NCBI RefSeq assembly: GCF_041146345.1
Contig: NW_027191402.1
Location: forward strand, 930,001 to 994,000
DNA length: 64,000 nt
Direction: 5' to 3'
DNA from: Neodothiora populina
Lineage: Eukaryota
Shown piece after piece: positions 13,901 through 57,043 of the stretch. Every line of letters begins with the position of its first letter. Positions within the stretch are counted from its first letter, which is position 1. Under the pieces are notes generated by a model, which saw only the letters and a list, made by a program, of their open reading frames with translations, did no database searches and had not been told where the DNA came from. The position numbers and the translations under genes were made by a program.

Positions 13901-14114
13901 GCGCTGCCCGTCCCGTTGCTGACTGGGCTGGGTTGCCTGTTGAGCGTCTTGAGGGATTTGTCTGGTTGGGTGATATTAGTACACACAGAAGCTTGTAAGA
14001 TCAACAGAAAAAGGCATACTCTAGCCATTGCTCGATAGAAGGAAGCTCGTCGGGTTTCTTGACCAGCGGAGAGTCGCGCAGAACCTTCAGCTCGTCTATT
14101 GTATATCTCGACAT
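10997..14114 (-). CDS. eIF4E-binding translational repressor, 4E-T/Eap1-like, disordered Q/P/G-rich protein
   Basis: Exon 1 14114-14020 MSRYTIDELKVLRDSPLVKKPDELPSIEQWLE, intron 14019-13962 (GTATGC..ACTAAT..CAG), exon 2 joins in frame to the 952-aa ORF; motifs YxxxxL, REPEWMD, EFEKWKESMK, SRFASMF, several PPGF. Confidence 0.75.
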
Positions 14115-15824: not shown

Positions 15825-18800
15825 TCAAGATACACCCCAAACAGCTCCTAGCCACCCGCCTCTACCAGCTCTGGCGAGCCCCTTTACCAGTTCGCCAATC
15901 TCAACACCGTCCACGAACGCCGCGAGATCATCCGCGCCAAAGGCCTTTTCGTATGCCATTAGCCATGCCTCGGGCTCTCTAATCTCCTTGTCCATCGGTT
16001 GTCTTGCCTGAATGGCCGCCGTGTATGCCGCTCCGGGTGCCGCGAAGAGCGATGGCACGTTCTCGCTCGGTCGTCTTGCGGTACTGTTGGGTGATGAAGC
16101 ATATGCATGATGTGGCTCCCTGACGGCACTGCCGCCATTCGTCGATGTCCATGATGTTGTATTGGGAGTGCCACCATGAGGAGAGGAATGAATTTGCCCT
16201 ATGCTTGGACTCGTTGCATCCGCTGGTCGGAAAGAGTGGTGCGCGTAGTTTGATGGCGTTGACGGCGAGGACGAAGGCGGTCCGTAGGAAGAAAAGAAGC
16301 GGAACTGCGCAGAGTTGGCCTGTTGTCCTTGACCTGCGGTCGTGGGAGGAGTCCCTTGGTTCGATGTCGCTGCCGACAGAGCCGAAGCGGCTGCCGCCAC
16401 CGAGTTGATTGCATTCCATCGTTCTTCTTGCTGCGCATGCTGATCGCCTGCGTTGTGAACCGCGCCCTCTTGTTTGACCCCGGGGCTGGCAGCATCAGAT
16501 CCTGGTCCAAAGGACATGCCACTGCTTTGCTGTGGGACATCTGCCATTTCGGTGTCGCTGTCGTCGTCTCCGCCGTCGAGCTCTCGAAGCACCCTTTCGA
16601 GCAACACTCTTGTGCTTTCGGCATCCGGCGGATGGAGTTGAGCGGTAGCTATGCTCTGATCGTTCCATATCTCGCGCTCCCTGCCGTGCATCATCCTAGG
16701 CGCGCTGTCGAACCACGCTGTCCGTAAACGTGAGAAGTATTTGCGAGACCGCTTGAGTGTCCTGAGCCATCCGTCGGCCATGTGGAGCCTTGTACGCATG
16801 GGTCCGACCATCTCCAAGGCCTTCCGGACCGCTTCCGCACCGTGTGGGATATGATCCTCACGGGCCGGGTTCGCCCGTCGTAGATAGCCGTTCGTGTCCA
16901 TCCAGGGGAAGTTGATCACGTAGACTCCTAGCAATGCCACGTTGTACATTGCGAATCCTACTATCGGCGTCTCGACAGAGACTCCCCATTCTTGACACGT
17001 CTGCAATAAATCAACAATGTCTCGAGCTGCCGAGAAACATGCGCGACCGCCTTCCTCCCAGAAGCCTGGAGGTGGCACGGGGTCGGCGATCGATGGCCGC
17101 GTCACTCCGTCGAGAGGACCTTGCGGTCTTGCGTGGCGGAATGGAATGAAAGGCAAAAACTCGCGATAGAGAAGAATATGGCATAACGAGACAGTGACGT
17201 GTACCAGCGCGTAAGGGCTTGAAGTGCGGATGTTGATATGTGCGGATGTGTTTTGAGGAGTTAGAAGATGTTGTCTGGGTAGAGTTGTCCGGAAGTCTTC
17301 CAGGGCTTGGCGTAACAAGAACCATTGAGATTGGCGGTTCCATGGTGGTAGAGCGTCGCGTCTGTTCTCATGTCAGCTGTTTCTCTTTGGTTGCTTGGCT
17401 GGACCATACCTTCTGCCACCGGCGCACGCCCAACTGACAACCTTGCCGTACATATCGAGAATCTTGATGTAACGACTGACGAGACCTTCCTCGGCCCCAG
17501 CCTCCCATTTGCTCTGCTCATCCGCGATTTTACCATTGAGCCCGTTCGAGGAGAAAGATTGCCGTCTCATGTGGTCGTTCATGACCTCACCGAAAATTGA
17601 AGCTCGACGTTGACCTTGCACATCTGAAGCTGGAGGCGTATCGGGAGATCTTTCCCCTAGCATCAATGTACGGACAGGCTCGCCGAACAAAAAGGCTTGC
17701 TCGCTTGCCGGTAACTGGATTCGGAGATCTGCCGCGTTAAGCGTCTGGATCCGAAACTTGCCATTGCTCAGATAGCGGTCGAGTATGAAGCAAGCCCAGA
17801 AGGTACGTCTCCGCACCTCTGCTTGAACAAAGACGTCGTTCGAGGAGCCAGCATGGAAAGATGCACGCGAAGAGGGGGGCACAGCCACCTTGCCCTCATC
17901 GTTGAGTGGCATACACCTAGAAAGGAGAGAATTGTCTAGGTCAAGTTCGTAGTGTAGACCCATGGCTTGAGCAGACCTGATGGCTACACCGAGAGAAGCC
18001 CATGCTCGCAGGCCTCGATTCATGCCCCAGTCATGGACTGCCAACATGAGGATGGCTTGTATCATTTCGAGGTCACAGATTCCAGGGGTGTCACGGGTGG
18101 CTGCACTGATGCGAGTGGTGGCTGCTGAAGCATAAAATTCAGAAGCGGTCAAAGGGTTGCTGGGACGATTGTCGACTGCCGGAGAGTGATGAGAAATTAG
18201 CTTGGGGTGAAAACGTGCAGTCAAGGCCAAGAAAGCAAGTAAGAACTCGTTCGAAGCCGGAGGCTGCACGGCTGACCCCTTGTCACTCGAGTATGGCTTG
18301 TACTGAGGGCCGAGATTGTTGGCCTGTCGTAGTGGCTTGAGAAAGGTAGGCGGATGGATAAAAGGTAGATCAGTCGAGAAATGTAACTGAAAAATATCGA
18401 ACTGTGATTCGTCAATGCTGTTTTGTCAGGGAAACAGAGAACGACTTACCAGTTCTTGCCATACGGAAGACGTAAGTAGGCTGGGATCTAGAGCATCCAC
18501 TGAAACACTGGTCGGCTCCGCCACGACTGGCACAGGCTGTCCAGGTAGACCTGCATTGCTCTTCCGATGTTGTCTGGGCTTCCGGGCCTGATCCTTGTGC
18601 GTTAGTAAAGAAAAGTAAGTATGCACAAGACAAATTACCTGATCTTCAGTCAACCCTTCTGGCCTGGACATCTGACCGACAGCGCTCTCCCTTCTCTTTC
18701 CACTGCTGACGGGAACAGGATATGTACATTCCCTGCCTCCCGCTTCGCAACTTCTACAAGCCGTACCAACTCCACTGTTCACACACTTGACCTTGGACCT

Positions 18801-18897
18801 GCGACAACGCACACAGGCGATCGACGAACGCATCCTGGCCTGCGCATTTCTTTGACTCGACTGGGCTGGTTGTTGCTGCTGCTGCTGCTGCTGCTGC

Positions 18898-18949
<52 letters not shown>

Positions 18950-19304
18950 GATGCTGCTGTTGCTGTTGCTGCTGAGATTGTTGACTGGCATGCTGAATGT
19001 CTGGACCAAGCAGTGGAAGAGCCGGGCTCGACTGCGATATGCTTGGCAATCGTACCGGAGTCAGATGATGATTATTAGGTCGTGGACTTTTTCGAGGGCG
19101 AGCATCGGAAGTATTCCCATACGAGTCACTGCCCTCTGAAATGTCGTCCGAATAGCGACGTTTGGGGGAAGCTGCGTTGACATTGAGCCCAGCGGATGCG
19201 GTAGTCGCGGCTATGGATGGTGATAGCGCGGGTTGCGGTTGGGGTCGCGGGGCTCCTCCGGCGGGCCCGGAGAGCAGATTCGACAAGGCAAATGAGGACG
19301 AAAT
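15825..19304 (-). CDS. Zn(II)2Cys6 transcription factor with fungal TF middle homology region; start uncertain (first in-frame ATG at 18833, reading frame open up to 19334)
   Basis: CVRCRRSKVKC-x8-CRSC-x6-C cluster; introns 18638-18588, 18449-18402, 17409-17362; PFIHPPTF and EVRRRTFWACFILDRYLS motifs. Confidence 0.9.
18870..18975 (-). repeat. (CAA/CAG)n trinucleotide repeat encoding polyglutamine
   Basis: Long pure (TTG)n flanked by (CTG)n on the + strand, in frame with the zinc cluster on the - strand. Confidence 0.95.
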
Positions 19305-20937
19305 GATGGCGACTTGCGTGAAGCGCGTCACGACTTATTCTCCTTGTCTTTCACGGGCGTGTATAAGCAAAAGAGAAGAACGCAAGATCATGCGAGTCCA
19401 CAATGGAAGACAAGAGGGAGCAAGGCGTGATAGCGGATTCGGCTATCTAGACGCGAGATGCCGAGCCGAAAGCTTTCCCCACTGCGCCGGACTTGAGGTC
19501 GGGAGATCGATCCGAGCTATCTCCTTGTCTGGCCTGATGATCGGCAGGACAGGAAACGACTCACAGGAACGACAAGTTACGGAATCTCGTTTTCGAGGTA
19601 CACTGTAATAGTTGCCCCGTGGAATCGAGGACAAGAAGTATGACAGAGCCCGGATGGGCTGATGTTGTTGTTGACACCACAAGACGCACTGTATAATTAG
19701 ACGAGTAAAACCCTGACCGTACTCTACTGTACACGCACGCCCTCGAGTCACTCCACCTACTCCCACTGAATTGACTGATCCTGAAGTCTAAACGAAGAGC
19801 GAGAACGGCGATAGCAACGACCAGGAAATCTACTAGGTAAGTCGAGCCCAAACATTGACCAGCTTTCCCAAGAAACGGCCCCACATCGGTCCGGGTGCTT
19901 CTAGGAGGAGCTACGAACGGTAAACCAACTTAGAGCTCTCATGAACCGGGCAAACCCTCTCGAATTGCATGTGAGGGCTCGTCATAACGATGATCACCGC
20001 CGTTCCCCACGTCTTTTTCCTATATTTCTGACTGTGACCACGTACCAAGGCATACACTTTTCTTTCCGACTGATTATCTTGATTGTCGCCATGATCTGAG
20101 TCGTGCGAGCTTGGCCATGACGTCCCTTGCCGTCTTGTCGTATATTGCTGCGGCCCGGGTCGCCTGGGTCTCGACAGAAAACCCCGCAACTGGAGTCTTT
20201 GCATTCAAGCGGTGATAACCCTCCACTCGGAACCGAACCCGCCGTTAAAGAGCAGCAGGGCAGGCGGCCTTGGGATGCGGCTGGTACGCAATGCCGACCC
20301 CGTCCTTGCTTGACGCTTTGACCGATCTTCGCTCCATTGCGGTCTCAAATGTCTTGAGGTATACAGTTGGACTATCAACCACCGAGTGCTTTCGCGTAGT
20401 TTGATTATGTGACGGGCAATTCAGCGCACGGCATCACAGTGACAAGCGATAATCGAGCAGGACAAGACAGGCACAGCGAGTATGAGTCCTGCTCATCAAT
20501 GATTGATTTTGTTCAGCAGTGGGGTCTCTTTACGGTAAGCACTAGCCCACGTGACGTATCTAAATTGTCCCGACGAACGCCATCTACGACGGAACTCTGC
20601 CGATTAGGCCGTACGGAAGGATTTTTATCCATTCCCGTCCTCTGTTCCCAATCTAGATTAGAAACAATAGAGACATATCCGCAGATGCAAGATAGTCACC
20701 TAGTGTCAATTCACCTCGCGTGTTACATATACGAGAACATCTGCATATCGACTTGCGCTGATCGTGTGACATGACTCGTGAACAGCTTCAGTTTTGTCAT
20801 GTGTGCAACATGACTAGCATAATGAGTCTCTGCACACACTAATCTTAAAGAAACGTCATAGTCCGGAAGACTGATCGACCAGGCCTCTCATTATTTTTCT
20901 TCACTGACCACCATTGAAGGAAACCCTTGGTAGACGC

Positions 20938-22813: not shown

Positions 22814-24178
22814 CTACTTGCCTTTAGCCCCGCCGCGTGGTTTGCCACGCGCACCTCCTTTCTTCTGATTCGGACCTGCGATTTTCCTCTCATATAACTT
22901 CTCCTTCCCAAAGCCTGCATCCGCAATCCTCAGATAGCTGGTTACTCCTTGGTCAACGACTGCAAGAATCACGTTCTTGTAACCGTTTCTAAATTTCTGA
23001 TACATCTGTCCGCTCTCTTGTGGCGGTCGATACGGCGTCGAGTCTAAGAGCGCACCAAGCTGAGCAAGTGTAGGAACACATGTCTCTCTCGCGTTGACGA
23101 CAGCTATCCGAAAGTCTGGTTGACCAGGATCACTTTTCTTGTAGGTAGTCGAGCCAGGCTTCCACAAATGGTAGGTGATCCTGAATGCAGGATCTGTGGG
23201 CGGAGAAGGTTCAGGCTTTCTTGCTGAAGGGTCATATCCAGGAACCAATGCTAAACGACGGTAGATATCGGCTGTCACTGTCAGTATGGTTGACATTTCT
23301 TACTACAATTTTTCAAAGACCTACCGTAGCTTCGATAACAACCCGGCTTTACCAAGGGGCCTTGTTTCTGTCGTTCTTCACTTGAAGACGTGCTCGACAT
23401 GAAAAGATTCCTCAAGCCACCAGCCAACAAGCCAAGACTCCACATTGAAGCTGATGGTGAAGGAGGAAGGCAGTCTTCGCCAGGTACATCACCAGAGCTG
23501 TTCCAACTTGGTGCTCGATGAACGACGTAGCCCATCCGTTTGAGACCCGCATACACTGAGTATCGTTCGAACGTCAAAGCGCCTCCAGTCTCATCTTCCC
23601 TGCCGATAAAAGCTGCATATGCACCTTGCAAACTCATAGGTACTCCAAGTTCCTCGTTGTCGTCTGCACTAGGTGGCCACCTGACGTCAATCGTACCACG
23701 CTCAAGAAGATAGAGAATCTCCTCCGGCAAGAGCCATAATCTGTTGGAATGACCGTCTCGATGGCCAAGAGGGTCTCTGTTAGAAGGGTACACTCTACCC
23801 ATGTTCTTGAAAAGTGGTCCTTTCGGATCGACAGTGTACGCCATGTTGGTTTCCGGATGATAATGGGCAACATTGTATCGTTTCGGTGCATGTGATCTTT
23901 GATATGATAATGCTGTGTGCATAGCTGCCCTAGACTGCTCTAAAACACTTGCTTGTAAATTCGTATGGTGAGGCTCAAAGTCCTTTTCACCACGCTTTGG
24001 AATTTTTGCATCATCGCTTCTACAGTATAAATCAGTATATAGTACACTTGAGATGATACACAGTTTTGACGCACGAGAATGCAAGCAAGAATCTGAAATC
24101 CTGTGTCTCATCTGATAGGTCTACGTCCTCTTCATGACTTGCGCCACGCGGTATCACATCCTCATCTACGTCGGCCAT
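22814..24178 (-). CDS. SEN54: tRNA-splicing endonuclease subunit Sen54
   Basis: MADVDED..DLSDETQDFRFL, IPKRGEKDFEP, LWLLPEEILYLLERG, MSLQGAY, YSVYAGLKRMGY, YKKSDPGQPDFRIAVV, VILAVVDQGVTSYL; two introns near 24073-24020 and 23324-23274. Confidence 0.95.
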
Positions 24179-30486: not shown

Positions 30487-30930
30487 TGTCTTGGCGTTCG
30501 ACGTCCAGCCTCCCGGAGGTGTGTTTGAGTGAGTATCTACTATTATTTGCTGATTGATATGAGTCAAACAGAGTATGAGCTTGTGAATGACGCTGATGGG
30601 TGGCAAGAGCAAGTTATCAGACAAGATACGAAGACTACATACAACACACTGTATAGAGCAGAGGACGGTAGAGGTTGAGAGGTGGTTGGCTGCAACGGAT
30701 TTTAGCTACAGTACTTGCCGTTACGAGTCTTAGCGCCGAACTCTAAGCACAAATGCCAAGACACGCATAATCGCGGCGAAACAATTTGGGTCAGCGACTT
30801 AATCTTTTGCGGGGCAGGATTGATATGGATTTTATTGTCCAAAGGTCAGCAAGGGTTCAGAGAGTTCAGATGTGACAGAGGAAGCAGTAGATCTTGTGGA
30901 AAAAGATCATCTGTAAAGAACAAGTCGATC

Positions 30931-33378
30931 ATGTCGACAGCAGCGAGCGTCTTGGATTTGCCACACGGTAAGTTCCTATATCTTCATACCAGAGATGGGC
31001 GCATTGAAAACAGATTGTGCGGGACTGACATTTCACGAATAGAGCTGCTTGTGCTGTGGCACGAACACCGCGTCTATGTCTTGATAGCGCTTGCCGCAGT
31101 GGCGACTGTGGTCAGAGTGTTGGTGGCATATCGTAGTGGACGAAGCAAGGCATCTGCGACTCCACTCGCATCACCTAAGCAGAATGCGACAGACGACAAA
31201 AAACCCATCCTGGAGCTGTTACAAAAGGATAGTGAGAAGGTGGAATTGAGAGATGCGGATCATTTAGTTGATGTTGCCGCTCCTGTCGTTCCCATCAGAG
31301 CTCCTTCCCCAAAGACCAAGGCAGGACCCAAAAGAGTGGCAGGCGTCAAAAAGCGCACAAAGTCAGCCAAGGAAGATGGGCCGCAAACTCCCCAGCAGAT
31401 TCAGCCTCTGATCTTCTTCTACTCGATCGCTGGAGGAACAGAGAGTTATGCAGAGAAGCTCGCAGAGCAGATGGTCAGCCCGGATGACAAGGACTACTTG
31501 AAGCCGCAGGTGCACGACTTGGCCGATACTGATCTCGATGAATTCTTCATTTCACCCCCCAAGGCTCATTCATCAGGCTTGCCAACTAAATACTTCTATC
31601 TTATTTTACTTCCAACCTACAACATCGACACCGAACTCAGCAACTTCATCGACCACTTGCAAGAGACACACAATGATTTCCGAATTGATACCGCATCCTT
31701 GACTGGACTGTTGGGCTATTCTGTGTTTGGATTCGGCGATAAAGAGGGATGGCCAAGTGAGGAAGAGGGCTTCTGCGAGCAGGCCAAGGTTGTCGACAAA
31801 TGGATGGCCAAGTTGACCGCCAGGAAGAGAGCTTTCCCTCTTGGTATGGGCGATGTCAAGAGTGATGCAGTGGAGAGACTCGACGAGTGGAGAACTGGAT
31901 GCATTGATGTGCTGAAAGACTTGGCTGCAGGTAACGGCTTGGGCGAGGGCGTGCCGGGAAGTGGAAACGCGGTAGAGAGTGACGAAGAAGACCTTGAAGA
32001 CGACGAAGACGAAAGCAGCGATGACTCGACCGCAGAGAAAAAGAAAAAGAAGAAGCAAGACGACGCCGCTGACTTGGAAGATCTCGGTAAGTCTGCTTCA
32101 GGAGAAGTTCTTGCCGTTGATTTCACCAACTTTGGAAAGAAATCAAGCAAAATCACGAAAACCCCTGCATCAACGGAGCCAAAGGAGATGGTACCCAAGA
32201 CATCTCCGACTTACACATCATTGACCAAGCAGGGTTATCAGATTGTTGGATCACATTCCGGTGTCAAGATCTGCCGCTGGACCAAGTCTGCCCTGCGAGG
32301 TCGCGGCTCTTGCTACAAGTATTCTTTCTACGGCATCCGCTCACATTTGTGCATGGAGACTACCCCTTCGCTGTCATGCTCGAACAAATGTGTCTTTTGT
32401 TGGCGCCACGGCACAAATCCTGTCGGTACTACCTGGCGCTGGAAGGTCGATCGTCCTGAGATGATTTTTGACGGCGTCAAGGCCGGCCATTACAAGAAGA
32501 TCAAGATGATGAAGGGCGTGCCGGGTGTCCGTGCCGAGCGCTTCGCAGAAGCCATGCGCATCCGACACTGTGCCTTGAGTCTCGTCGGAGAACCCATCTT
32601 TTATCCATATATCAACGAGTTCTTGCGCATGCTTCACGCCGAGCGCATCTCTTCTTTCCTGGTGTGCAACGCTCAACATCCGGATCAACTGGCTACTCTG
32701 GACCACGTCACACAGCTCTACGTCTCTATTGACGCATCCAACAAGGAATCTCTCCGTAAGATTGACCGACCTCTCCACCGCGACTTCTGGGAACGCTTCC
32801 AGCGCTGCCTCGAGATCCTGCGCGAGAAGCGTTTCATCCAGCGCACAGTCTTCCGCCTCACGCTAGTCAAAGGCTTCAACATCGACGAAGAAGCATGCGG
32901 CTACGCAGACCTAGTCGAGAAAGCTTTACCGGGCTTCGTCGAAGTCAAGGGCGTGACATACTGCGGCACGTCGACTTCTTCGTCCGCAGGTCTCAGCATG
33001 AGCAACGTGCCGTTCTACGAAGAAGTCTGCACTTTCGTCGAGGCTCTCGTGCGCGAACTCAACAAAAGGGAATTAGACTATGGAATCGCTGCCGAACACG
33101 CGCATTCCTGCTGTATCCTCATCGCGGACAAGACGCGCTTTTACAAGAACGGGAGATACCACACACTTATTGACTATGAAAGCTTCTTTAACCACTTGGA
33201 GAGCGGCGAGGAGTTTGGTCCTGATGATTATATAGGCGAGGCTACCCCTGAGTGGGCTGTCTGGGGAAGCGGCAACGGAGGATTCAATCCCGAGGATGAA
33301 AGAGTCGATCGAAAGGGAAGGAAGAAGGAGGACGAGAGGGTTAAGGTCAGTGGTGGACGTATCGTGGAGTTGTCATGA
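30931..33378 (+). CDS. TYW1: Radical-SAM tRNA 4-demethylwyosine synthase Tyw1
   Basis: ATG 30931, in-frame 75-nt intron 30968-31042; N-terminal hydrophobic segment, flavodoxin domain (YSVFGFGD), GSHSGVKICRWTK, CSNKCVFC, HCALSLVGEP, VEVKGVTYCG. Confidence 0.97.
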   Translation: MSTAASVLDLPHGKFLYLHTRDGRIENRLCGTDISRIELLVLWHEHRVYVLIALAAVATVVRVLVAYRSGRSKASATPLASPKQNATDDKKPILELLQKDSEKVELRDADHLVDVAAPVVPIRAPSPKTKAGPKRVAGVKKRTKSAKEDGPQTPQQIQPLIFFYSIAGGTESYAEKLAEQMVSPDDKDYLKPQVHDLADTDLDEFFISPPKAHSSGLPTKYFYLILLPTYNIDTELSNFIDHLQETHNDFRIDTASLTGLLGYSVFGFGDKEGWPSEEEGFCEQAKVVDKWMAKLTARKRAFPLGMGDVKSDAVERLDEWRTGCIDVLKDLAAGNGLGEGVPGSGNAVESDEEDLEDDEDESSDDSTAEKKKKKKQDDAADLEDLGKSASGEVLAVDFTNFGKKSSKITKTPASTEPKEMVPKTSPTYTSLTKQGYQIVGSHSGVKICRWTKSALRGRGSCYKYSFYGIRSHLCMETTPSLSCSNKCVFCWRHGTNPVGTTWRWKVDRPEMIFDGVKAGHYKKIKMMKGVPGVRAERFAEAMRIRHCALSLVGEPIFYPYINEFLRMLHAERISSFLVCNAQHPDQLATLDHVTQLYVSIDASNKESLRKIDRPLHRDFWERFQRCLEILREKRFIQRTVFRLTLVKGFNIDEEACGYADLVEKALPGFVEVKGVTYCGTSTSSSAGLSMSNVPFYEEVCTFVEALVRELNKRELDYGIAAEHAHSCCILIADKTRFYKNGRYHTLIDYESFFNHLESGEEFGPDDYIGEATPEWAVWGSGNGGFNPEDERVDRKGRKKEDERVKVSGGRIVELS

Positions 33379-36480: not shown

Positions 36481-39395
36481 TTAAGCAACGCTGATTCTTA
36501 TGCGTCCGCCGCTTCGGCGATGGTCCAAACCCTTGTATTTCGTCATGGGCTCCTCGGCGCCCAGATCACCCACGACTCCGGCATCTGTAATGGTGCCGTC
36601 TTCGTCGCGGACAATCCTCGTGGGCACTTCTGGAATGTCTTCCTCTTGGCCCCCTCGCCACTGACTTTGCACCGAGTGTCGGTCGGGAGTGGCGGCGCTG
36701 CTGACGCTCATGCTCGTGCTCGAACGGTTCAGGCTGTGCACGAGATCCGGGGTGGGCGGAATGGATGAATCGCGGCCGTTGCCGCGAGAGGCGCCGAGAT
36801 AGTCGTTGCCTTCACTGTAGTCGGATCCAGAAACGAGAGATCCGTCCTCGCTGGCTGGGGGCGGTCGGATGGGCTTCTTACCCTGGCGGGACGAACGGCG
36901 GCTGGAGGGCGTCATTGTAATGTCTTCCTCTATGCGGTCAGCTGGGGCTGAATCAGCACGCTGTGCGAGGTGCAGACCTTCGACTGCGGCGGCGCATTGC
37001 TCGCTGATGTTGCGAATGATGTACGCAATCGCATTTGTCTTGTCACGGAGGTTCCGGTCGGCGGGATCGTTCATGCTGATTGCGCTGAGGCGACGACGGG
37101 TGTCTGCTCTGTTCAGGAGACGGCTCTCCATGTCGGCGACGTTGTCGTCGTCGGAGGCGCGAAGAGAGTGACGGGTGCTGGCGCGGGACGAGGCACGAGA
37201 GCTGCGACGACTGGCGGGGAGAGCAGTCTCAGAGGCCATCTGCTGCTCTTCTGCCATCTGAGGGTTGTCGCCGAGGTTGCGAACGATGTGCTCCATGTGA
37301 TGGGCTTGTCCATCGATGAGCGCTCGGAGATGCAGAACAACACGTTGCGCCTCGTCACGTGACCTGAGCAGGGTGGCATTTGCGTGCTGCAGGTTTGAAA
37401 GCTCTTTCTTGTTGCGCTTCCTTTCGCGCTCGAGTTCTTCGGCGATCTCTTGTTGAAGAACAAGGGCCTCGAGGGCGTCGTCGCGCTGCTTCTCTGTGCC
37501 GCCAAGACGCACCGTGAGACGTGCCGTGTCTTCCTTGTGTTGGTCGACGAGGCCAGCAAGTCGTCTGTTTTCTCTCTTGTGACCCTCGATCTTGACCTTG
37601 AGCTCCTGCGTTTCCTTGGTAAGCTGCTCTGCAAAGGCTTGGAACTTGAGGAATTGCTGTTTCCACGAATCCAACTCTTCTACCAGGAAGTTGTTGCGCT
37701 TCGTGACCTTGTTGAGTTCAGTATCCATACGAGTTTTGAGATTGATGAAGTCCTGCCACGCCTCCAATGCATCACGGGAGTATTGGTTGCGTTCACGAAT
37801 GATCTCATTAAGATGACGCGTGGACACTTTGGTCATAAGAGGCTTCTTCTGGGAGTGGCCAAAAACCGCCTTGATGCCGCTGTTGCGTCCCTGTAGTGAA
37901 TGTTCAGTATATGTTGCAGATAGAAGTTTGACCAAGCTTACAAGTTTTTCGCAACCATGATCCATGACACTCATGACGGCATCCTGGTTCCACCAACCCG
38001 GGTCTTGTACACTCTCGACCTCGCCGCGCATGACAATGATCTGTCCAGCGGGGATGAGCTTGCCGCCGCCATAAGCAGAACGAAGATGCTGCGGCACACC
38101 GGAGGGAGCGACGTCGCCGTTCAGCGCTTGAGTCAGGCGATTGATCGTCTTTGTGCGCTGACTGGGGCTGAAAGCAGTGGGAGGACTAGAAGTAAGAACA
38201 AAATTGCGATCGAGGTCTACGACCAGGGCATCGCTCGGAGCAGTGAACAGAGTACGACATTCGGCGGTGATACCGAGAATATAAGGACCGGGCTCCTGCA
38301 CAAGGTCCTTGGCGTGTCGAGAGTGGACGACAGGGACATACAGACCACTCCACTCGTAGACACGCACACAGAAGCGAATGGTCTCGGCGGCAATGGTGAG
38401 CATGGCTGGGTAGTGACTGACAAAGATGATGCGTCGAGTAGGAGAGACTGCTGCTTCGACAACGCCGACGATGTTGGGGATGGACAGACAGCAGAAGAGC
38501 GGCCACATGGCGAAGTTCTGGAAGCCGGTCGGTGACGAGGGGAACTGGTAGCAGAGAGCATAGTCCTTCATGTCAATGCGCACCAGATCGTTCAGACGCG
38601 GAGCAGGGAAGCTGAGGATGCGCGACACTTCTTCGGCATGAAACAGATTGGTGGCTTTGTTCCAGTGAATCCACATACCACGGAGGTAGTCGCCAAGGAG
38701 GTTGTAAAGAGGATATCTCGAGAGAAAACTAAGACAATACGGGATCCAGTACGTCTCGCCAGGCGTGTCGTAGTAGTCCTGCTCTGTCCGCCGACGGAGT
38801 TCTCGTATGGTCTCGGCGCGCTTCTCGTCGGCACGAGACCACACGCGCAACGCGATACCGTACAGAGTGTGTGATGAATCCTGTTGCAGCACGAAAGCGT
38901 GGTGCACGCAATGAGGTTGACTGGTTCCGGTGCAGATCTCGACATCGTGGGGAAAGCATGCCTGCAAGTGACTGATCAGCGATGATTCATACATGGTAAT
39001 GCGACTGGTGGTCCACGTACGCGCATGGCAGAATGCAGCGAGCGGGCTATCTCGTTGTCCTGCTCCAGTCGCGGGCTGCTGCCCAGGATCTCAGGCAGCC
39101 AGAATTGACCAACGGCGCCCTTCATGTGGCCGACTTTGCCCTGGCTTGGTTGAGGTGCCTTGACCCATTGAGATGGTTCGCGACCAACACCACACACCAT
39201 ATAGGCGTGGGTGAGAGTCTTTGGCGCTCGCTGTCCATTGCGCGGTTGGGTGAGTTGTGAGGCAAGAGGTTGTGTGATGCGTGAATGCAGCGATGATGTG
39301 CGATTGGGGATGGCAATGTCGCTCTCGGCGCGACTCGTGGGTCGAGACACTCTCGACTCTCCACTGCGAGGTCGCGATGTCACAGAGAGAGGCAT
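36481..39395 (-). CDS. DENN domain protein (putative Rab GEF) with C-terminal coiled coil
   Basis: MPLSVTSRPRSG..THAYMVCGVGREP; introns 39020-38962 and 37941-37891; HHAFVL..LYGIALRVW, YCLSFLSRYP, RRIIFVS, YVPVV, PGPYILG, LVVDLD; long coiled coil. Confidence 0.92.
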
Positions 39396-44390: not shown

Positions 44391-46133
44391 CTACCTGTAC
44401 AAAGTGCCATTACCAGTAAAGTTACCGGTCTGGGTAGAGTAATCACCAGTCTGCTCCAAACTGCTAATCCTACCGAGCAAAAACTCAAGCTGTCTGTACG
44501 ATGCGCCGGGGACATACTGAGGGATCTCGTGGCCCGCGCCGTTGACGGTGCAGAATGTCAATCCACGCTCGGAGTGAGTGACGCCCAAGAGACCCGCGCC
44601 CGCAGTGTCGGTCTGGGGAGTGGTCGTGGATGGCTGGTACTCGATGTCGTAGACGATGGTGCCGAGAGACTCGTGGTAGGGAACGTAGAAGTTCAGAGAC
44701 GTCGATGGAGCGGTCTGAAAGCCTTGCTTGCCGCCCCAGGTCATGTTTTGGATCGTGGCAAGAGTGCCGTTGGACATGATGAGGAAGTCGAAGTTTCCGT
44801 TGCCGATGACGACGTTCTTGGTCTTGTCGATGACTTTGGGCAGGGGGTCATAGGACGAAGGCGGAGATTGGTCGCCGCCGTGAGGGAAGAGTCCGCCGTC
44901 GCCACAGGCCATGTAGTTTGTGCTCTCGGGTACGTGGAGTGCTGCCTTCACGTCGCTTCGATTGAAGTAGTTGTTTGGTCCTGGCGCGAGCGAAGGGAAA
45001 CCCATCTCGTCCCAGAGGAAGGGGCAGAAGTCTATCAGATGGTAAAGGTTGAAGCAAGGGTTCACCAGGATGGCAGCAGACAGGATGTCGTCGTAGACGT
45101 CGCATCCCTCGACACTAGGGTCAGGTGCGGCACCGAGAGGTCCAGCAGGAGGGAATGTGAGGGCTTTCTCGTTGAATGCCTTGTAGCCACATGACTCGTA
45201 ACGCTCGTTGATCTCGGTCATGAAGGTGTCGTTCAGGTTGAAAATGTTGGAGTACTTGTTCAGCATGGGTACAGCAGGTGCTAGCAACCAGTTAGCCCTA
45301 ATCATCACGGGATGGCAGAAGTAATAAAGTACCATAGATTAATGCACCGTCGTCACCAATACTGGGGTCATTGATCTGAATACCCTTGACATTGTAGTAC
45401 TTGGTATCGTTGGTATCCAACATGGCCTCAGCAATGTAAGGAATGTATTGGCCAGCATAGCTCTCTCCAGTGATGTAGACCTTGTTGTGCTCCATGTCGA
45501 AAGTCTTGATGAAGTTCTTCCAGAAGCCCATAAAGAGTCTTGCGACATCATGCTCGTCGAAAATTTGTTCAGGAGCTCCAGGCGCAGCAGGCGAGAGACC
45601 GGTTCCAATAGGCTGGTCGATCCAGACCATGTTGGTCAAGTTCGTCCAGCTGTAGGAGTTTGGGAAGGGTTTATAGGTACCAGACTGCCACAAGAAAGGT
45701 CCGTTTTCCTGTAGCAGACCATCCAGTGAACTGCAACCAGGACCACCATTCAACCAAATGGTGATCTCGTCCGAGGCCAAAGGGTTCTCCGAAGGGAAGA
45801 ACCAGAAGAACAATTGGTTGGGGTTGCTTGAATTTCCATTGACACTCAGAGTACCGGCGTAACTCTCACCGACGTCAAAGTCGACTTCAGGGATTCCGGT
45901 ACCATTGACGGCGAAAGCTGGTTGATGGTCAACCATGTGATCTGAGTCTATTGCGGAAACCATGACTTACGCTTAGTTTTTGCAGTCAAATAGCTAGCCG
46001 TACTGTTCTTGGCCTGCACTTTTCTTGGAGCCAATTCTCTTCTCTTAAGAGCATGAGCTTTCCTGTGAGGGCTCTGGAGAGCTACGGTGGAGGAAACACC
46101 CAAGAAGGCGGTGAGCCACAGCGAGTGATGCAT
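44391..46133 (-). CDS. Secreted serine carboxypeptidase (peptidase S10, CpdS/PepF-like)
   Basis: Signal peptide [21 protein letters not shown] processing site, [23 protein letters not shown] (catalytic Ser), [13 protein letters not shown] (catalytic His); two introns. Confidence 0.95.
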
Positions 46134-49575: not shown

Positions 49576-51370
49576 TTTCCTTTGGATCTTCCGGATCTGC
49601 TACTGGATTTCTTTCAATAAGTCACGCGGAAGTCGAAGTGGCTATCTCTTGTCCACAGTCCTATCTTGTTCACAAGCAGTATGTCTAGAGTGGGAGAAAT
49701 ATTGCAACCCAATGGAGAGAAATTTTTGGAAATGGAAGTTTTAGTATTACAAAGAAATGTTTCAAAGACGCCTTGCGGATATTGGATCCCTTTTTAGTAT
49801 TTACAATTGCTTCACTCGGGATGTCTGTAGGGTGGCCCAGCCATGACCACCTTTCTCTCGACCAGAAAACTTTCGATTGAATTATGCTATCATTGATGAG
49901 TACAAATGTATGACGTGGGTGTTTATCGACCTCCGCCACAAGCCGAGTATCCGAAACCTCGGGTTATGCTGATGTTATAGATAAACTCGACTTTTACGGC
50001 CGAGGTATAATTGACACTGCATTATCGTCATTATCTCAAGATAGTTGTATATTTGTTGTAAAACCCTTACTGCCCTACCAGAATCCAACTTAATCTTCAC
50101 GAACAGCCTGCGTCAATTATCCAATACGCAATGTGTTGCAGACAAAGCAACAGCTGAAAGCCGAAAGCGCAAACGGATAGCGGACAGCAGCGGACATTCG
50201 GTTTACCCGGTCAGTTTATCACAGCGTCATTCCACACGACACTTACGAGCCAAAGTCCACTCGGTCGTCGCAATAAAGTCCCACGATCCGAAAAGTACAT
50301 ACAGACAGAGGGAACTTTTGCAGTATCTTACTCATCAAAAGAGGCCATAAGCACGATCGCTCGCCTCCCCGTCCCGGATAGAGTGTATCCGAGACGCTAA
50401 GATAGCGATCCGTTCCTCGTTGGACCAAAACCTAAACGTAAGGTAAGGTACTGTGCCTTAGTTTACTTTTCCTCTGGTTGGGGAGGATAACGCCAGAAAA
50501 ACTGCTTACGTGCTTGAAGTGGTGAGGTGGTTCGCCAAGATCTTAAGCCGACGACATCGACATCGACTCCTCACTGACATGACAAGATGCCGTCCGTACC
50601 TATGCAAAAATAATGCATTCCGGCTTCATCTCTACCTTGCCTTCACTTAAACGACGGGGAGTATGGCGGCGCTCTGGTTCTTGGGTATCGAACGAGTGGC
50701 TCTCGTGGTGTGTCAATCCGGCTGGCCCGGAGATTCATTTTTTCCTTTTTGTCCACTCTCGCACATAACTACATCTTCAGGCTTCAATGCAATAACCCTC
50801 TCGTATCGAAGCAAGAGAAAATCAAAACTTCTGCCAAGACATGTAGTACTATGTGTGATTCGCTTTTCGCGGGGTAGAACTGCGAAGTGGTTGATATGGC
50901 GGTGAGAGAGATTTCGAGAAAATTCGAAAGAGTGAGATTAGAGTACTTGTGAAGGATAATGCGGCTGCTCCGTCTGTCGCGGGTAATCAGATCTACATTT
51001 GATCGTCTCTTGATCTTCTCGTTTGTGCGGCGAAACAACATACAAGAAGGAAAAGAAGAAGAGAATGAAGTGATGGTCAAAAATCAAATGAACGTAGTTG
51101 GGTATATACATTGAAAACTAAGTACAAGAATAATAAATACAAACGGATATATCATCAAATGGACTCCCCGGAGCTCATCACCAGGCCCATATGCTTTTTG
51201 TGCAAGACGAGAAAACATTGCTATGAAATGATAGAAGAAACACAAAACTATACGCCATTTTCGAGGGCTTTCTGTTGTACACATGCCCACACAGTCGTCC
51301 CTTTTCACCATCGGATCCACACATGAATAAATCAACTCCTTGAACCTTTTCCTTTTTTTGTCCTTCCCAA

Positions 51371-54300
51371 TTAAGGTGCCATCACAAGAGCCAAAAGGGC
51401 CATGCGTACGTACATGCCGTACTTCATCTGCAAAGAAAGTCAGTGGAATGGTCAAAAGATAGAAATGGGAAAAGGCACCCACCTGTCTGAAGTAAGCGCA
51501 TCGGGGGTCGTCGTCGACCTCGGCACTCAACTCCATGTTTCTGGGCAGAGGATGCATGACAATCATGTTCTTCTTGGCGTGAGTTAAGGTGGCTGCAGAG
51601 ACGATGAGACCGTCCTTGTATTTCTCGTACACTTCCAAGTCATCGAAACGCTCCTTTTGCACACGAGTGCAGTAAAGAACGTCGGTCTTGGCAATAATCT
51701 CAGGGGTCAAAGACTCGCTGACAACGGAGAGTTGACCGCGGGCCTCGAGGCCTGCTCTGACCTTTTCGGGGAGTGCGAGTGCTGCAGGCGAGGCAAGTTG
51801 CACAGTGACATTGTAGTGCTTGAGCAACGCGCAGAGGGAGTGCACAGTACGGCCGTACTTGAGATCACCAGTGAAGGTGATGGTCAAGCCGTTGACAGAC
51901 CCAAGCTCCTCACGCATGGTGTACAGGTCAAGGAATGCCTGAGTAGGGTGCTCGCGGCTGCCGTTGCCGGCGTTGAGGACGGGGTGGTCGGCATACTTGG
52001 CAGCAATGTCGGCAGACTCATCGCTGGGGTGGCGAAGGACGATGGCATCCGCGTACTGGTCAAGAGTACGGACGGTATCCTGCAGAGTCTCGCCCTTTTG
52101 GGTGGACGAGTGAGCCTCGTTGATCATGAGCGTGGCACCGCCGAGACGCTTCATGGCTGCATCGAAAGATCCAGAAGTGCGAGTGGAGGGCTCGTAGAAC
52201 ATGAGCGCGAGGACACGGCCCTTGAGGATATCAAGCGATCCGTCACGCTCCACGCCGAGACGCATTTCCGATGCGATGGTGAGGAGAAGGTGCAGTTCCG
52301 CCTTAGAGAACTGTTGCACGGAAATGATGTCACGACTCTTGAGCGGCGAGTTGTGGAGAAGCTCGGCCAGAGACTTGTTCTGCTTCTTGCGCTGGGTGGG
52401 AGGGCTCATAGGGGTAGATGGCTCGTCGACGAAGCTCTGGAAATCGAGCTTGCTGATCTCGAGGTCGTAGTTGCGGGCGATGGCCTCGATCAACAACTTG
52501 GCGTTCTTGACGTTGGTGACCAGAGGGGTCTGGTAGTCGACGGCCATTCTGCGAGTGCGGTAACCCTTGGACATGTAGTTGGCAGGTCTGCGGAAGCGGT
52601 TGCTTGAGGGCAGGTTAATGTACAAGTCGATGAGGTTGTTGGCAAGGGCATGAGTGAGAGAGTACTCTGCTCTCTGGGTATCATCAGAAAGAGCCTCCAA
52701 GAACTTGCAAGAAACGCCGTGCTCCTCGAGGAAGTCGGCGGTACCTGCAGTTGCGTAGATGTTGTAGCCGAGCTTGTGGAGCTTCTCAACCGAAGGAAGC
52801 ATCTCCATCTTGTCCTTGAACGAACCAATGGACAAAAGAATGTTCTTCTTGGGCAGACGGAATCCAGTGGCGATCAAACCCTTCATGTAGGCTTCGTACT
52901 TGGTGCGACCGAAACAAGCGACCTCACCAGTGGAAGCCATCTCGACACCCATGACGGGATCGGCTCCTGACAGACGGGAGAAGGAGAACTGAGGGACTTT
53001 GATACCGACGTAATCCTTGGGCATGGTGGTTGGGGGGTAAGGCTGGAGAGGGATCTCGGCCATGGCCTTGGTAGCCAACTCGATGAGGTCGACACCAGTG
53101 ACCTTGGAGACAAATGGGAAAGACCTCGAGGCTCTGACGTTGCACTCGATGACCTTGATGTCGTTGTCCTTGGCGATGAACTGGATGTTGTAAGGACCAG
53201 TGATGTTGAGAGCGTGACCAATCTTGCGAGTGGCCTCCTCGATACGTCTGACAGTCTCGGGGTCAAGATCTTGAGGAGGCTGGATCAGGGTGGCATCACC
53301 GGAGTGAACACCAGCGTTCTCGACGTGCTCGGACACAAAGTGGCCAATCATCTTTCCGTTCTGGGCAACGGCATCCATCTCAATCTCCTTTGCGCCTTCA
53401 ATGTACTTGGTGATGACGACAGGGTACTCCTTGGAGACTGCGGCGGCTTGGTTCAGGTAGTTGGCCAAGTCGTGCTCCGAGTAGACAGTGTTCATGGCGG
53501 CACCGGACAAGACATAAGAAGGACGGACGAGCACAGGGTACTTGACCTTGTCACAGAACTCCTTGGCTTCCTCAATGCTGGTAAGCTCCTTCCATTGAGG
53601 CTGGTCGACCTCGATTCTGTCGAGCATGCGAGAGAACTTGTATCTGTTCTCGGCGGTGTCGATCATCTCGGGAGAAGTACCCAGAATCTTGACATTAAGA
53701 CGGTGAAGAGGCAATGAGATGTTGTTAGGGGTCTGTCCACCCATGGACAGAATGACACCGCTAGAGTTCTCTAGCTGGTAAATGTCAAGGACAGTCTCGA
53801 GAGTGATGTTCTCAAAGTACAAACGGTCAGCCTCGTCGTAGTCAGTGGACACAGTCTCGGGGTTGTAGTTGATCATGACAGTCTTGTATCCGTTCTCGCG
53901 GAGGGTACGAATGGTCCTGACAGAGCACCAATCGAACTCTACGGAAGAGCCAATACGGTAAACTCCCGAGCCCAACACCATGACACCATTGTCGTTGAAG
54001 TCGATATCGCTCTCGACGCCATTGTAGGTGGTATACTGTTACGTGTTAGCGACTGCTGCAAGCAAAAAGACATAAAAGGATACACACTAGATAATTCGTA
54101 AAAGCAGGGAACTCAGCAGCGACAGTATCGATTTGCTTGACAACAGGCATGAGCTTGTTGGCGAGTCTGACCTTGCGGACCGTCTGCTCGCTGGTACCCC
54201 AGAAGATGGACAATTGCTTGTCAGAAAATCCAAGCTCCTTGGCTTGACGGAATAGGGTAGGGTCGATGGTGTTGGCGGTCTTGGTGCTCATGAGCTTGCC

Positions 54301-57043
54301 GAACTCGCTGAGGCCCTTGAGCTTGCTCAGGAACCACTTGTCGATCTGGGTCAATTCCCAGATTTTGTCGACGGTGTAACCAGAGTGCATAGCGTTGGCG
54401 ATGGCGAACATGCGCTGATCAGAAGGAGTCTGAAGCTCTTGGTCAATGGACATGAGCGCACTAGTCTCCTGGAAACCCAGGTTGCTGACATCGACAGCAC
54501 GAATAGCCTTCTGGATGGCCTCCTCAAACGTCCTACCGATGCTCATGACCTCGCCGACGGACTTCATAGAAGAGCCGAGGAGTGTCGAGACACGAGTGAA
54601 CTTCTTGAGATCCCATCTAGGGATCTTGACGACGCAGTAGTCGAGAGAAGGCTCGAAACATGCGACGGTGGACTTGGTGACGCTGTTCTTGATCTCGTTC
54701 AATGGGATGTTCAGACCAAGTTTAGCAGCAACGAAAGCGAGGGGATATCCAGTGGCCTTGGAGGCAAGAGCGGACGAACGCGACAGACGTGCGTTGACCT
54801 CGATGATGCAATACTCTCTGGATTCGGGATTCAGAGCGTATTGGATGTTGCACTCTCCGACGACACCAAGATGGCGAATGACGTTGACCGCAGTGGTTCT
54901 GAGCATGTTGTAGTCTTGGTCGGAGAGAGTCTGCGAGGGGGCGACAACGATAGAATCACCAGTGTGGATACCGAGGGGGTCAAAGTTCTCCATGTTACAG
55001 ACAGTGATGCAGTTGTCGTTGCAGTCGCGTACGACCTCGTACTCGATTTCCTTCCAGCCCTTCATACTCTTCTCGACAAGCACCTGGGGACTTGCGGCGA
55101 AAGCCTTGTTGCAGAGCTCACGGAGCTCGGTCTCGTTGTATGCGAAACCACTGCCAAGGCCACCAAGAGCATAGGCTGCACGAACAATGAGAGGGAAACC
55201 AATCTCCTTGCCGGCGTCCATGGCCTCGTCGATGTTGTTTGCAGACCTAGACTTGGCGCACTTTTCACCAATGGAATCCATGGAGCGAGCGAAAAGCTCA
55301 CGGTCCTCGGTGGTGATGATGGTGTTGATGGGAGTACCGAGAACCTTGACGCCGAGAGACTCGAACTCGTCCTTGAGAGCGATTCCGACGGACAGAGCAG
55401 TCTGGCCACCGAAAGTGCAGTAGATGGCGTCGGGCTTCTCCTGCTTGATGACTTTTCTAACAAAGTCGGGGTTGACAGGCAAGAAGTAGACCTTGTCTGC
55501 AAGACCCTTGGATGTTTGGATGGTGGCAATGTTGGGGTTGATGAGGATTGTGTAGATGCCCTCCTCTTTCAGCGCCTTGATGGCCTGAGATCCAGAGTAG
55601 TCAAACTCACCGGCCTGACCGATGGAGAGACCACCACTACCGAGAACAAGAACCTTCTTGACGTGCACTCTGGGGTTGATCTTTTGGTTTTCGGCAATGT
55701 CGCCGCCGGGGAACTTGACGGGCTGGTGCATGAGGCTGGGGTTCTCGATCGTCTTCATGATGGTGTCGATGAAGACATCGAAGAGGAATTCGGTATCCTG
55801 AGGACCAGGAGCGGCTTCGGGGTGGAATTGGACGGAGAAGTAAGGACGGCTGACGTGTCTGATACCCTCGTTGCTGCCATCGTTGGCGTTGACAAAGAGT
55901 TCGGCCCAGTCCTGGGTCAGAGTGCGTGCATCGACGGCATAACCGTGGTTCTGAGAGGTAATGTGACACTTTCCAGAAAGCATGTTTGTGCAAGGGATGT
56001 TGTGGCCACGGTTACCAAACTTCATCTTGAGGGTGCTGGCGCCAGAAGCGCGCGCGAGAAGTTGGTGTCCCAGACAGATACCGAAAATGGGAACCCTGGC
56101 TTCCTTGATGTTTGCCTGGATGTTCTTGACTGTCGTCTCCATCATGGCTGGATCACCGGGACCGTTAGAGATAAACAGACCATCGTACTCCTTTCCTGCG
56201 AGGGCAGGGAAGTCGTAGTCCCAAGGCACTTGGATGACTTCAACGCCTCTCTTCACGAGACATCTCAGCTGGTTGAATTTGAGACCAACATCGACAGTCA
56301 CCACTCTGACCGGACGGCCTGAGGGGTGCTTCAATGCATTTGCTGGATCAGGGGAGTATGTCTTGGGGGCCTTGATGGAGACTGTTTCTTCGGTCAGTGG
56401 CCGGTCACTCGAATTGAGCAACTGGAGTCTTACCATCCGCCACCAGGTTTGTCGAGTTGGGGTTCGACCACTCAATGTCTTCGTATTCGGGCTGCTTGCC
56501 GTTGGTGCAGGTGGTGCCATTGGTCATGGTGATGCCGTTTGTGATGGGGGCGGCGACTGCAGTGCCGGCGACCTGCATCCTCAAACGTCCAAGCATACTT
56601 CCCTGTTCTCGGATCTTCTTGGTCAGGGCTCGCGTGTCGACTCCGCAAATGGCAGGCACGTCCTGTTCCTTAAGCCATTTACCCAATGAAGAGGTGGCCA
56701 AGTGATGCGAGTAGTCCTCGCCGCAGTATGAGGCTACGACAAGACCGGCAATGTGGATCTCGGATGCTTCAAAGTGAGCAGGCACATCTTTGAGGAGAGC
56801 GTCCATCTCCTCCCTTGATGGCACGCCGTAGTTACCGACGAGAGGGTATGTCATGACCAGGATCTGGCCACGGTATGAAGGGTCGGTGACAGACTCAGGG
56901 TAGCCGACCATGCCAGTCTGGAAGACCAGCTCGCCGGCCACGCTCTTCTCTGCACCAAAGGATTTTCCCTCGCAGAAACGGACGACATTGTCTCCGTCTC
57001 TGACCTCGAGGGCGATTAGCTTGTCTTCCGAATGGCCAGCCAT
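51371..57043 (-). CDS. URA2: Pyrimidine-specific glutamine-dependent carbamoyl-phosphate synthetase / aspartate transcarbamylase fusion (CAD-like), about 1837 aa, without a DHOase-like domain
   Basis: Exons 57043-56434, 56381-54088, 54035-51483, 51427-51371; GATase ([13 protein letters not shown]), CPS ([32 protein letters not shown]), MGS-like domain, ATCase ([19 protein letters not shown]). Confidence 0.97.

Follow-up and report, generated by a model that had tools for sequence, protein, structure and literature searches.

Animal CAD is a fused multienzyme for the first pyrimidine steps, and the fungal CAD-like proteins, such as Ura2 of S. cerevisiae and the protein of Chaetomium (Thermochaetoides) thermophilum, share with it the CPSase and ATCase domains. 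The architecture published for these proteins is a "dimer of trimers", in which ATC trimers are bridged by dimers of the DHO or DHO-like domain (PMC8442968, PMC9863657, 10.1101/2024.07.30.605799). The same sources describe the dimerising DHO or DHO-like domain as the hexamer's keystone and treat it as common to fungi in general; the domain is catalytically dead there and is said to have been kept for its dimers, through which two ATC-linked trimers are joined into the hexamer. The DHOase step itself is assigned to a separate fungal enzyme (PMC8442968, PMC9863657). For the human protein, DHO dimerisation was reported to be essential for the function of CAD in a human-cell assay (10.1101/2024.07.30.605799). 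Regarding the CPSase, two proposals can be found: in the newest model, it contacts domains of its own subunit only (10.1101/2024.07.30.605799), and in an older proposal made for Neurospora, dimerisation takes place through the CPSase (cited in PMC8442968).

In a literature search covering subscription-free journals and the main text of bioRxiv preprints, no published account of a fungal CAD-like protein lacking the DHO-like domain was found. The same search gave no statement that any fungal class lacks the domain, and the specialist papers generalise it to "fungi". Here, we describe a URA2/pyrABCN-type gene of the fungus Neodothiora populina that encodes GATase, CPSase and ATCase without this domain. 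The gene lies in a stretch of 64,000 nucleotides of contig NW_027191402.1 (positions 930,001 to 994,000), which is referred to as the window and from whose first letter all positions are counted. What is new is not the sequences themselves, which were already known, but the apparent lack of the DHO-like domain throughout a class, a case in nature against which the model of CAD assembly can be tested.

Gene model and domain layout

The gene occupies positions 51371..57043 of the minus strand, on which all features given below are located. Its model was rebuilt from the minus-strand sequence and consists of four exons, with the start ATG at 57043, a stop codon ending at 51371 and three introns, each of the GT..AG type; it gives exactly 1837 codons, the length to which the exon sum of 5514 nt (1837 aa) in the preliminary description had amounted. 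Exon 1 (56434..57043) encodes the CPSase small-chain N-domain (PF00988, CPSase_sm_chain, approximately 56585-56977, residues 23-153, Pfam E 8e-46), and the removal of intron 1 (56382..56433, 52 nt) joins NLVAD|VSIK. Exon 2 (54088..56381) contains the GATase (PF00117, approximately 55765-56295, E 3e-51) and the first CPSase half together with the oligomerisation domain (approximately 54205-55662; PF25596, PF02786 with E 2e-83, and PF02787); it is followed by intron 2 (54036..54087, 52 nt), whose splicing gives TNYL|YTTYNG. Exon 3 (51483..54035) encodes, according to Pfam, the second CPSase half (approximately 53046-53990), the MGS-like allosteric domain (52515-52805, residues 411-507 of the exon 3 protein) and, behind a spacer at 52371..52472, most of the ATCase. 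The latter comprises the carbamoyl-phosphate-binding domain (PF02729, OTCace_N, 51909..52334, E 2e-45, exon 3 residues 568-709) and the exon 3 part of the aspartate-binding domain (PF00185, OTCace, 51483..51890, E 2e-23, residues 716-851). Intron 3 (51428..51482, 55 nt) separates this part from exon 4 (51371..51427) with the last 18 ATCase codons and the stop codon, and the tail of 18 residues agrees with the homologue consensus.

Pfam thus finds the N-terminal glutaminase (PF00988 and the class-I GATase PF00117), a complete CPSase synthetase (PF25596 twice, PF02786 twice, PF02787 and PF02142) and the C-terminal ATCase (PF02729 and PF00185). The stretches GICLGHQ and HPE, which we take to be catalytic motifs of the GATase, are found in the translated gene. 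The ATC part matches the ATC of C. thermophilum (5nnn) with an E-value of 1.4e-115 over 290 residues, and as it closely resembles the ATC of C. thermophilum (ctATC) and of man, whose structures are trimeric, its active sites would be expected between the subunits of a homotrimer. The fungal CAD-like proteins of S. cerevisiae and C. thermophilum correspond to this gene by descent and in the order of GATase, CPSase and ATCase, and their CPSase is likewise built from a pair of ATP-grasp halves, the oligomerisation domain and the MGS-like allosteric domain.

The difference lies between the CPSase and the ATCase, at the position taken by the DHO-like domain in other fungi. The spacer is found here in a single open frame (51084-54038) which runs from the second CPSase half through the ATCase, so that the intron-free passage noticed earlier is borne out, as is its location: the CPSase end (27 residues), the following 28 residues and the first 14 residues of the ATCase map, in this order, to approximately 52308-52514, against 52320-52500 as first given. 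The linker is indeed short, but with a measured length of 38 residues it is longer than the 25-30 residues originally estimated. An amidohydrolase-like domain gave no Pfam match at E<=0.01 in exon 3, and PF01979 (Amidohydro_1, the active-DHOase type) gave none in the gene. The gene product is thereby confirmed to consist of GATase, CPSase, a spacer of 34-38 residues and ATCase, without a DHO-like domain. Animal CADs, which are among the wider-family relatives in the homologue search, have an active DHOase (the precomputed Pfam annotation lists PF01979 and PF12890), whereas the window's gene has neither match, and their spacers measure 362-923 residues in comparison with its 38.

The short junction in homologues and reads

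When longer proteins were searched with the MGS-spacer-ATC piece as query, 2418 matches were obtained, of which the best 120 were examined. Each of these aligns with the query over its full length (100%) in a single local alignment with an identity of 67-89%, and the spacer, measured as the distance from the end of the CPSase piece to the start of the ATC piece, is 36-42 residues long in 120/120. The best match is a protein of 1838 aa from Delphinella strobiligena, which is 89% identical over the C-terminal 472 residues. Three homologues are considerably longer and still have the short junction, with 59-61 residues from MGS to OTCace_N: P0047 (2237 aa) owes its length to additional sequence inside the CPSase, P0056 (2206 aa) to a fused C-terminal glycosyltransferase-17 (GT17) domain and P0035 (2092 aa) to an N-terminal extension.

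The taxonomy look-up placed all seven named genera queried in the Dothideomycetes, namely Delphinella (Dothideales), Zymoseptoria (Mycosphaerellales), Elsinoe (Myriangiales), Parastagonospora (Pleosporales), Aulographum (Aulographales), Viridothelium (Trypetheliales) and Cryomyces (without an assigned order), each with the short form. Aureobasidium, Cercospora, Hortaea, Plenodomus and, apart from one record labelled Quercus suber, the other named matches are presumably Dothideomycetes as well. Judged from these sequences, the short form appears to be class-wide in the sampled Dothideomycetes and no peculiarity of the Neodothiora populina genome, with the proviso that a long-form Dothideomycete could rank below the best 120 of the 2418 matches. 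The natural minimal GAT-CPS-ATC fusion proposed in the preliminary description is therefore natural and intact, but it is not special to this genome, as all 120 closest homologues share the junction. Its novelty for the clade did not hold either: more than 100 short sequences are already present in the databases, where this form is normal for the clade, though a published description was not found in the literature searched.

The junction was also compared with contigs from sequencing runs over 51300-53400. A contig of 7058 nt from run X2 covers 51300-53036 without any difference and retains intron 3; in a contig of 5853 nt from run X1, 51300-51427 is joined directly to 51483-53400, so that precisely intron 3 is left out (55 bases, whose ends read CT..AC on the plus strand and hence GT..AG on the gene strand). 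The intron-less contig has the form that a spliced transcript would have; as the type of run X1 is a guess ("DNA?"), it may or may not be one. Neither contig has a joint at 52320-52500, and runs X3 and X4 contribute small shares only (0.10 and 0.06), in short pieces that do not bear on the junction. An artefact, be it a loss of approximately 1.2 kb at this point of the assembly or an overlooked exon with the domain, is exceedingly improbable. X1 and X2 derive from one sample, possibly the source of the assembly, so that they are not independent of it and could not on their own exclude a systematic collapse. However, the frame is open and continuous over the junction, contigs from both runs cross the site without joint or difference, and the stronger, comparative argument for a real junction is that all 120 homologues, from many independent assemblies, agree on the same spacer length, the three longer proteins included. 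The missing DHO-like domain is not an assembly error.

It is hardly more probable that the gene is a decaying or specialised extra paralogue, with a canonical long URA2 kept elsewhere in the genome. Against this stand the close identity to the Delphinella protein, a frame that is intact through all four exons, and the lack of any long form among the best 120 of the 2418 homologues. In addition, the alignment of the 472-residue piece (49 rows) contains 57 invariant columns, including the ATCase stretches STRT, HPTQ and TRVQKERF. The gene is intact and apparently functional.

When 100 distinct segments around the junction are aligned, the CPSase end (YD..IS.VDYQ.F) is conserved and is followed by 15-25 variable residues and a second conserved block, S.SL..LL..SPFKGK.I.SV.QF, which leads into the ATC. 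The MGS-spacer-ATC piece of 472 residues was modelled with AlphaFold2 from the 49-row alignment (mean pLDDT 88.8), and the model contains two confident domains with a coil between them at residues 143-176. The pLDDT falls below 50 at residues 158-171 (14 residues, 52386-52427), and a short helix is predicted just before the ATC at residues 177-182 (LAELLH). The tether of 34-38 residues between GATase-CPSase and ATCase is accordingly predicted to be largely disordered. The window's STPMSPP and RKKQNK stretches are located in the variable part of the spacer. As neither this S/T-P-rich stretch nor the RKKQNK motif is conserved across the class, a conserved phospho-site in the spacer, as had been suggested for the S/T-P-rich linker, is unlikely.

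The missing domain and the number of losses

The nearest full-length long form in a search with one representative per 50% cluster is P0123 with 2239 aa, whose flanks are 60-75% identical to the window's gene. In the BLASTP comparison, the CPSase tail is 75% identical up to residue 1501 of P0123, and identity becomes clear again at the conserved SL..LL..SP motif near residue 1925 (the printed HSP begins at 1887) and continues to the ATC end with 60%; Pfam places the MGS domain of P0123 at 1377-1474 and OTCace_N from 1938. Because the alignment breaks at 1501 and resumes near 1925, approximately 400 residues are absent from the window's gene, which agrees with the absence of the pseudo-dihydroorotase domain noted at first sight. 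Residues 1502-1905 of P0123 are 65% identical to the "inactive dihydroorotase-like domain" of PDB 5NNL, and because of this identity the missing piece is recognised as the DHO-like domain known from structure, which other classes of the Pezizomycotina keep. Since the conserved block on the ATC side has its aligned counterpart in the residues that immediately precede the ATC in P0123, the deletion would have kept the last part of the old DHO-ATC linker. Fungal long forms carry both the inactive DHO-like domain and this linker, whereas the window's gene is without approximately 400 of these residues. Across 35 representatives containing both flanking pieces, 24 have long spacers (272-535 residues), eight have short ones (27-49) and three are intermediate.

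Instead of being lost, the domain could have been split off, so that a separate gene makes a DHO-like scaffold which joins GATase-CPSase-ATCase in trans. There are precedents in bacteria, whose ATCases associate non-covalently with DHO or pseudo-DHO as separate chains, as described in two reports on ATC-DHO and ATC-pseudoDHO complexes (PMC7053772, PMC3880350). A search of shorter proteins (30-1230 aa) with residues 1502-1905 of P0123 gave 369 matches, and the best 120 of these are pieces of long CAD-like proteins, almost all of which include MGS/CPSase or OTCace domains at the side of the region. Six of the best 120 of the 369 are named, and none of the six is a Dothideomycete: Pseudogymnoascus, Gyalolechia and Haloplaca (both Lecanoromycetes according to the taxonomy look-up), Sporothrix, Penicillium and T. 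thermophila (5NNL). The Pseudogymnoascus match is 97% identical to the DHO-like region of P0123 and thereby identifies the kin of the latter. The 24 other large ORFs of the window contain no amidohydrolase either and are ordinary fungal genes. These results, from the best 120 of 369 matches and the ORFs of the window, argue weakly against a split, which is considered unlikely, if less so than an artefact or an extra paralogue.

We regard it as highly likely that the gene is the URA2/pyrABCN orthologue, that an old in-frame deletion removed the DHO-like domain of approximately 400 residues in a single loss, and that steps 1 and 2 were kept. To place this deletion, quick maximum likelihood trees were calculated with the MGS and ATC pieces. 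The window's gene pairs with Delphinella (SH-aLRT 99), and the Pezizomycotina CAD-like group that includes it has a support of 100 and 99 in two quick trees, which points to a CAD-like orthologue of the Pezizomycotina. All forms with 36-42 residues cluster with an SH-aLRT of 91, which is below the 95 mark in a quick tree, apart from the long forms of the Leotio-, Sordario-, Eurotio- and Lecanoromycetes. Since all sampled Dothideomycetes share the deletion, the domain was most likely lost once, at or before the base of the class, the sample not extending to the sister class Arthoniomycetes.

Besides this cluster, further proteins with reduced spacers were found, all positions of which are taken from the quick trees. 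P0124, with a spacer of 77 residues, stands beside the long form P0125 in the Leotio/Sordario group, P0127 (100 residues) falls with the Eurotio/Lecanoro group, and P0137, with a P/Q-rich spacer of 133 residues, is placed outside the Pezizomycotina. In BLASTP against the window's piece, no DHO-like domain was found in these three, which have low-complexity linkers instead. P0141 and P0147 (spacers of 27-29 residues) as well as P0178, P0199 and P0268 (35-49 residues) show the same three-part GATase-CPSase-ATCase architecture with a short spacer, but are just 35-43% identical to the window's piece and represent at least two lineages far from the Pezizomycotina and from fungi, and would therefore have arisen separately. 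Similarly short spacers, with 46-50 residues, are found in eight relatives of P0178. P0124, P0127, P0137, P0141, P0147 and the P0178 group are environmental sequence predictions, and the distribution as a whole suggests that the domain was lost, or never gained, several times. The ESM Atlas assigns P0178 to a cluster labelled mostly Ascomycota, without usable taxonomy. Outside the fungi, the CAD-type gene reportedly treated by Nozaki et al. in 2005 for the red alga Cyanidioschyzon merolae may be of the DHO-less type.

Assembly and function of the short form

According to the proposed course of events, the old in-frame deletion would have taken out the inactive DHO-like domain together with the greater part of the DHO-ATC linker. 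From the families present, GATase and CPSase would form carbamoyl phosphate in a glutamine-dependent reaction controlled via the retained MGS-like domain, the ATCase would, probably as a trimer, convert it to carbamoyl aspartate, and step 3 would be carried out by a separate DHOase, as in other fungi. The bridge of DHO dimers in the "dimer of trimers" would then be impossible, and the particle would be either a trimer or held together by another contact. If the CPSase contacts domains of its own subunit only, a protein without DHO has no obvious route to a hexamer, and by the model of the 2024 preprint the Dothideomycete protein would be a trimer; the dimerisation through the CPSase proposed for Neurospora would allow a hexamer. 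A predicted complex of two copies of the MGS-like allosteric domain, a possible dimer contact of the CPSase, received a score of 0.00, which speaks neither for nor against such a contact.

We tentatively propose, at less than an even chance, that the Dothideomycetes have ATC-centred trimers without a hexamer, that the keystone is dispensable and that it was lost repeatedly, at the base of the Dothideomycetes and in P0124, P0127 and P0137. Should the protein form trimers only, as the preliminary description had considered possible, the DHO or DHO-like keystone would be dispensable for the hand-over of carbamoyl phosphate and for control by UTP, and fungi would have discarded it repeatedly, independently in at least these three further lineages. 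A species-rich class without the domain, which includes Aureobasidium, Zymoseptoria, Cercospora and the Pleosporales, would provide a natural experiment to learn what the hexamer is for and whether channelling and feedback control need it. Full CAD particles are reported to have disintegrated on EM grids (PMC9863657), and the smaller protein may be better suited to structural study than full CAD.

The short proteins are named in databases as [quoted passage not shown], "protein pyrABCN" or even "CAD", and the labels "CAD" and "pyrABCN" overstate their domain content. One short-form record is labelled Quercus suber, and its sequence is fungal-like.

Homologues without the DHO-like domain

Among the homologous proteins found in searches with the MGS-spacer-ATCase piece of the window's gene, the fungal-like CAD-like sequences P0124, P0127 and P0137 lie outside the Dothideomycete group and also lack the inactive dihydroorotase-like (DHO-like) domain. 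Their low-complexity linkers comprise 77, 100 and 133 residues, respectively, and are longer than the 38-residue linker of the window's protein. That the neighbour of P0124 in the quick tree is a long form suggests independent and recent losses of the domain. GATase-CPSase-ATCase fusions without DHO were also found in a set of 13 proteins (P0141, P0147, P0178, P0199, P0268, P0298, P0300, P0315, P0324, P0328, P0349, P0357 and P0362), with spacers of 27-50 residues and an identity to the window's piece of just 35-43%. In a quick tree, this set falls into at least two lineages distant from fungi.

Some homologues with the short junction are unusually long or oddly labelled. P0035 is labelled Quercus suber, but its sequence is of the Dothideomycete type, so that it is probably a fungal contaminant of the plant assembly. 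The fusion to a glycosyltransferase-17 domain in P0056 (Recurvomyces) and the additional length within the CPSase of P0047 (Meristemomyces) are likely gene-model errors.

Sequencing runs and the coding region

Two sequencing runs of one sample, X1 and X2, were compared with the gene. Run X1, whose type is given as 'DNA?', contains a 5853-nt contig that lacks exactly intron 3 (51428-51482), whereas the intron is retained in X2. X1 thus appears to consist of transcript data or to be a mixed library. At 53007-53080, the long contigs of X2 split into several contigs of 41-48 nt, some of which omit a single base at 53032 or 53050. This break is an assembly-graph bubble within the CPSase coding region. 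Sequencing error or a difference between alleles could account for it, and the undisturbed X1 sequence across these positions makes a real frameshift unlikely.

Exon 1 also encodes a T-, N- and G-rich stretch of low complexity (56440-56560, reverse strand), which includes [29 protein letters not shown]. It separates the CPSase small-chain domain from the GATase, and the homologue consensus is undefined over it.

Neighbouring genes

The CAD-like gene's neighbours within 171-45966 are ordinary fungal genes, encoding a sugar/MFS transporter (171-1025), an Eap1-like protein (11000-13975), a Zn2Cys6/Fungal_trans factor (17376-19334), Sen54 (23284-24120), a TYW1-type flavodoxin/radical-SAM/wyosine enzyme (30706-33375), a DENN-domain protein (36484-39090) and a serine carboxypeptidase S10 (44394-45966), together with a PQ-loop protein within the same interval.
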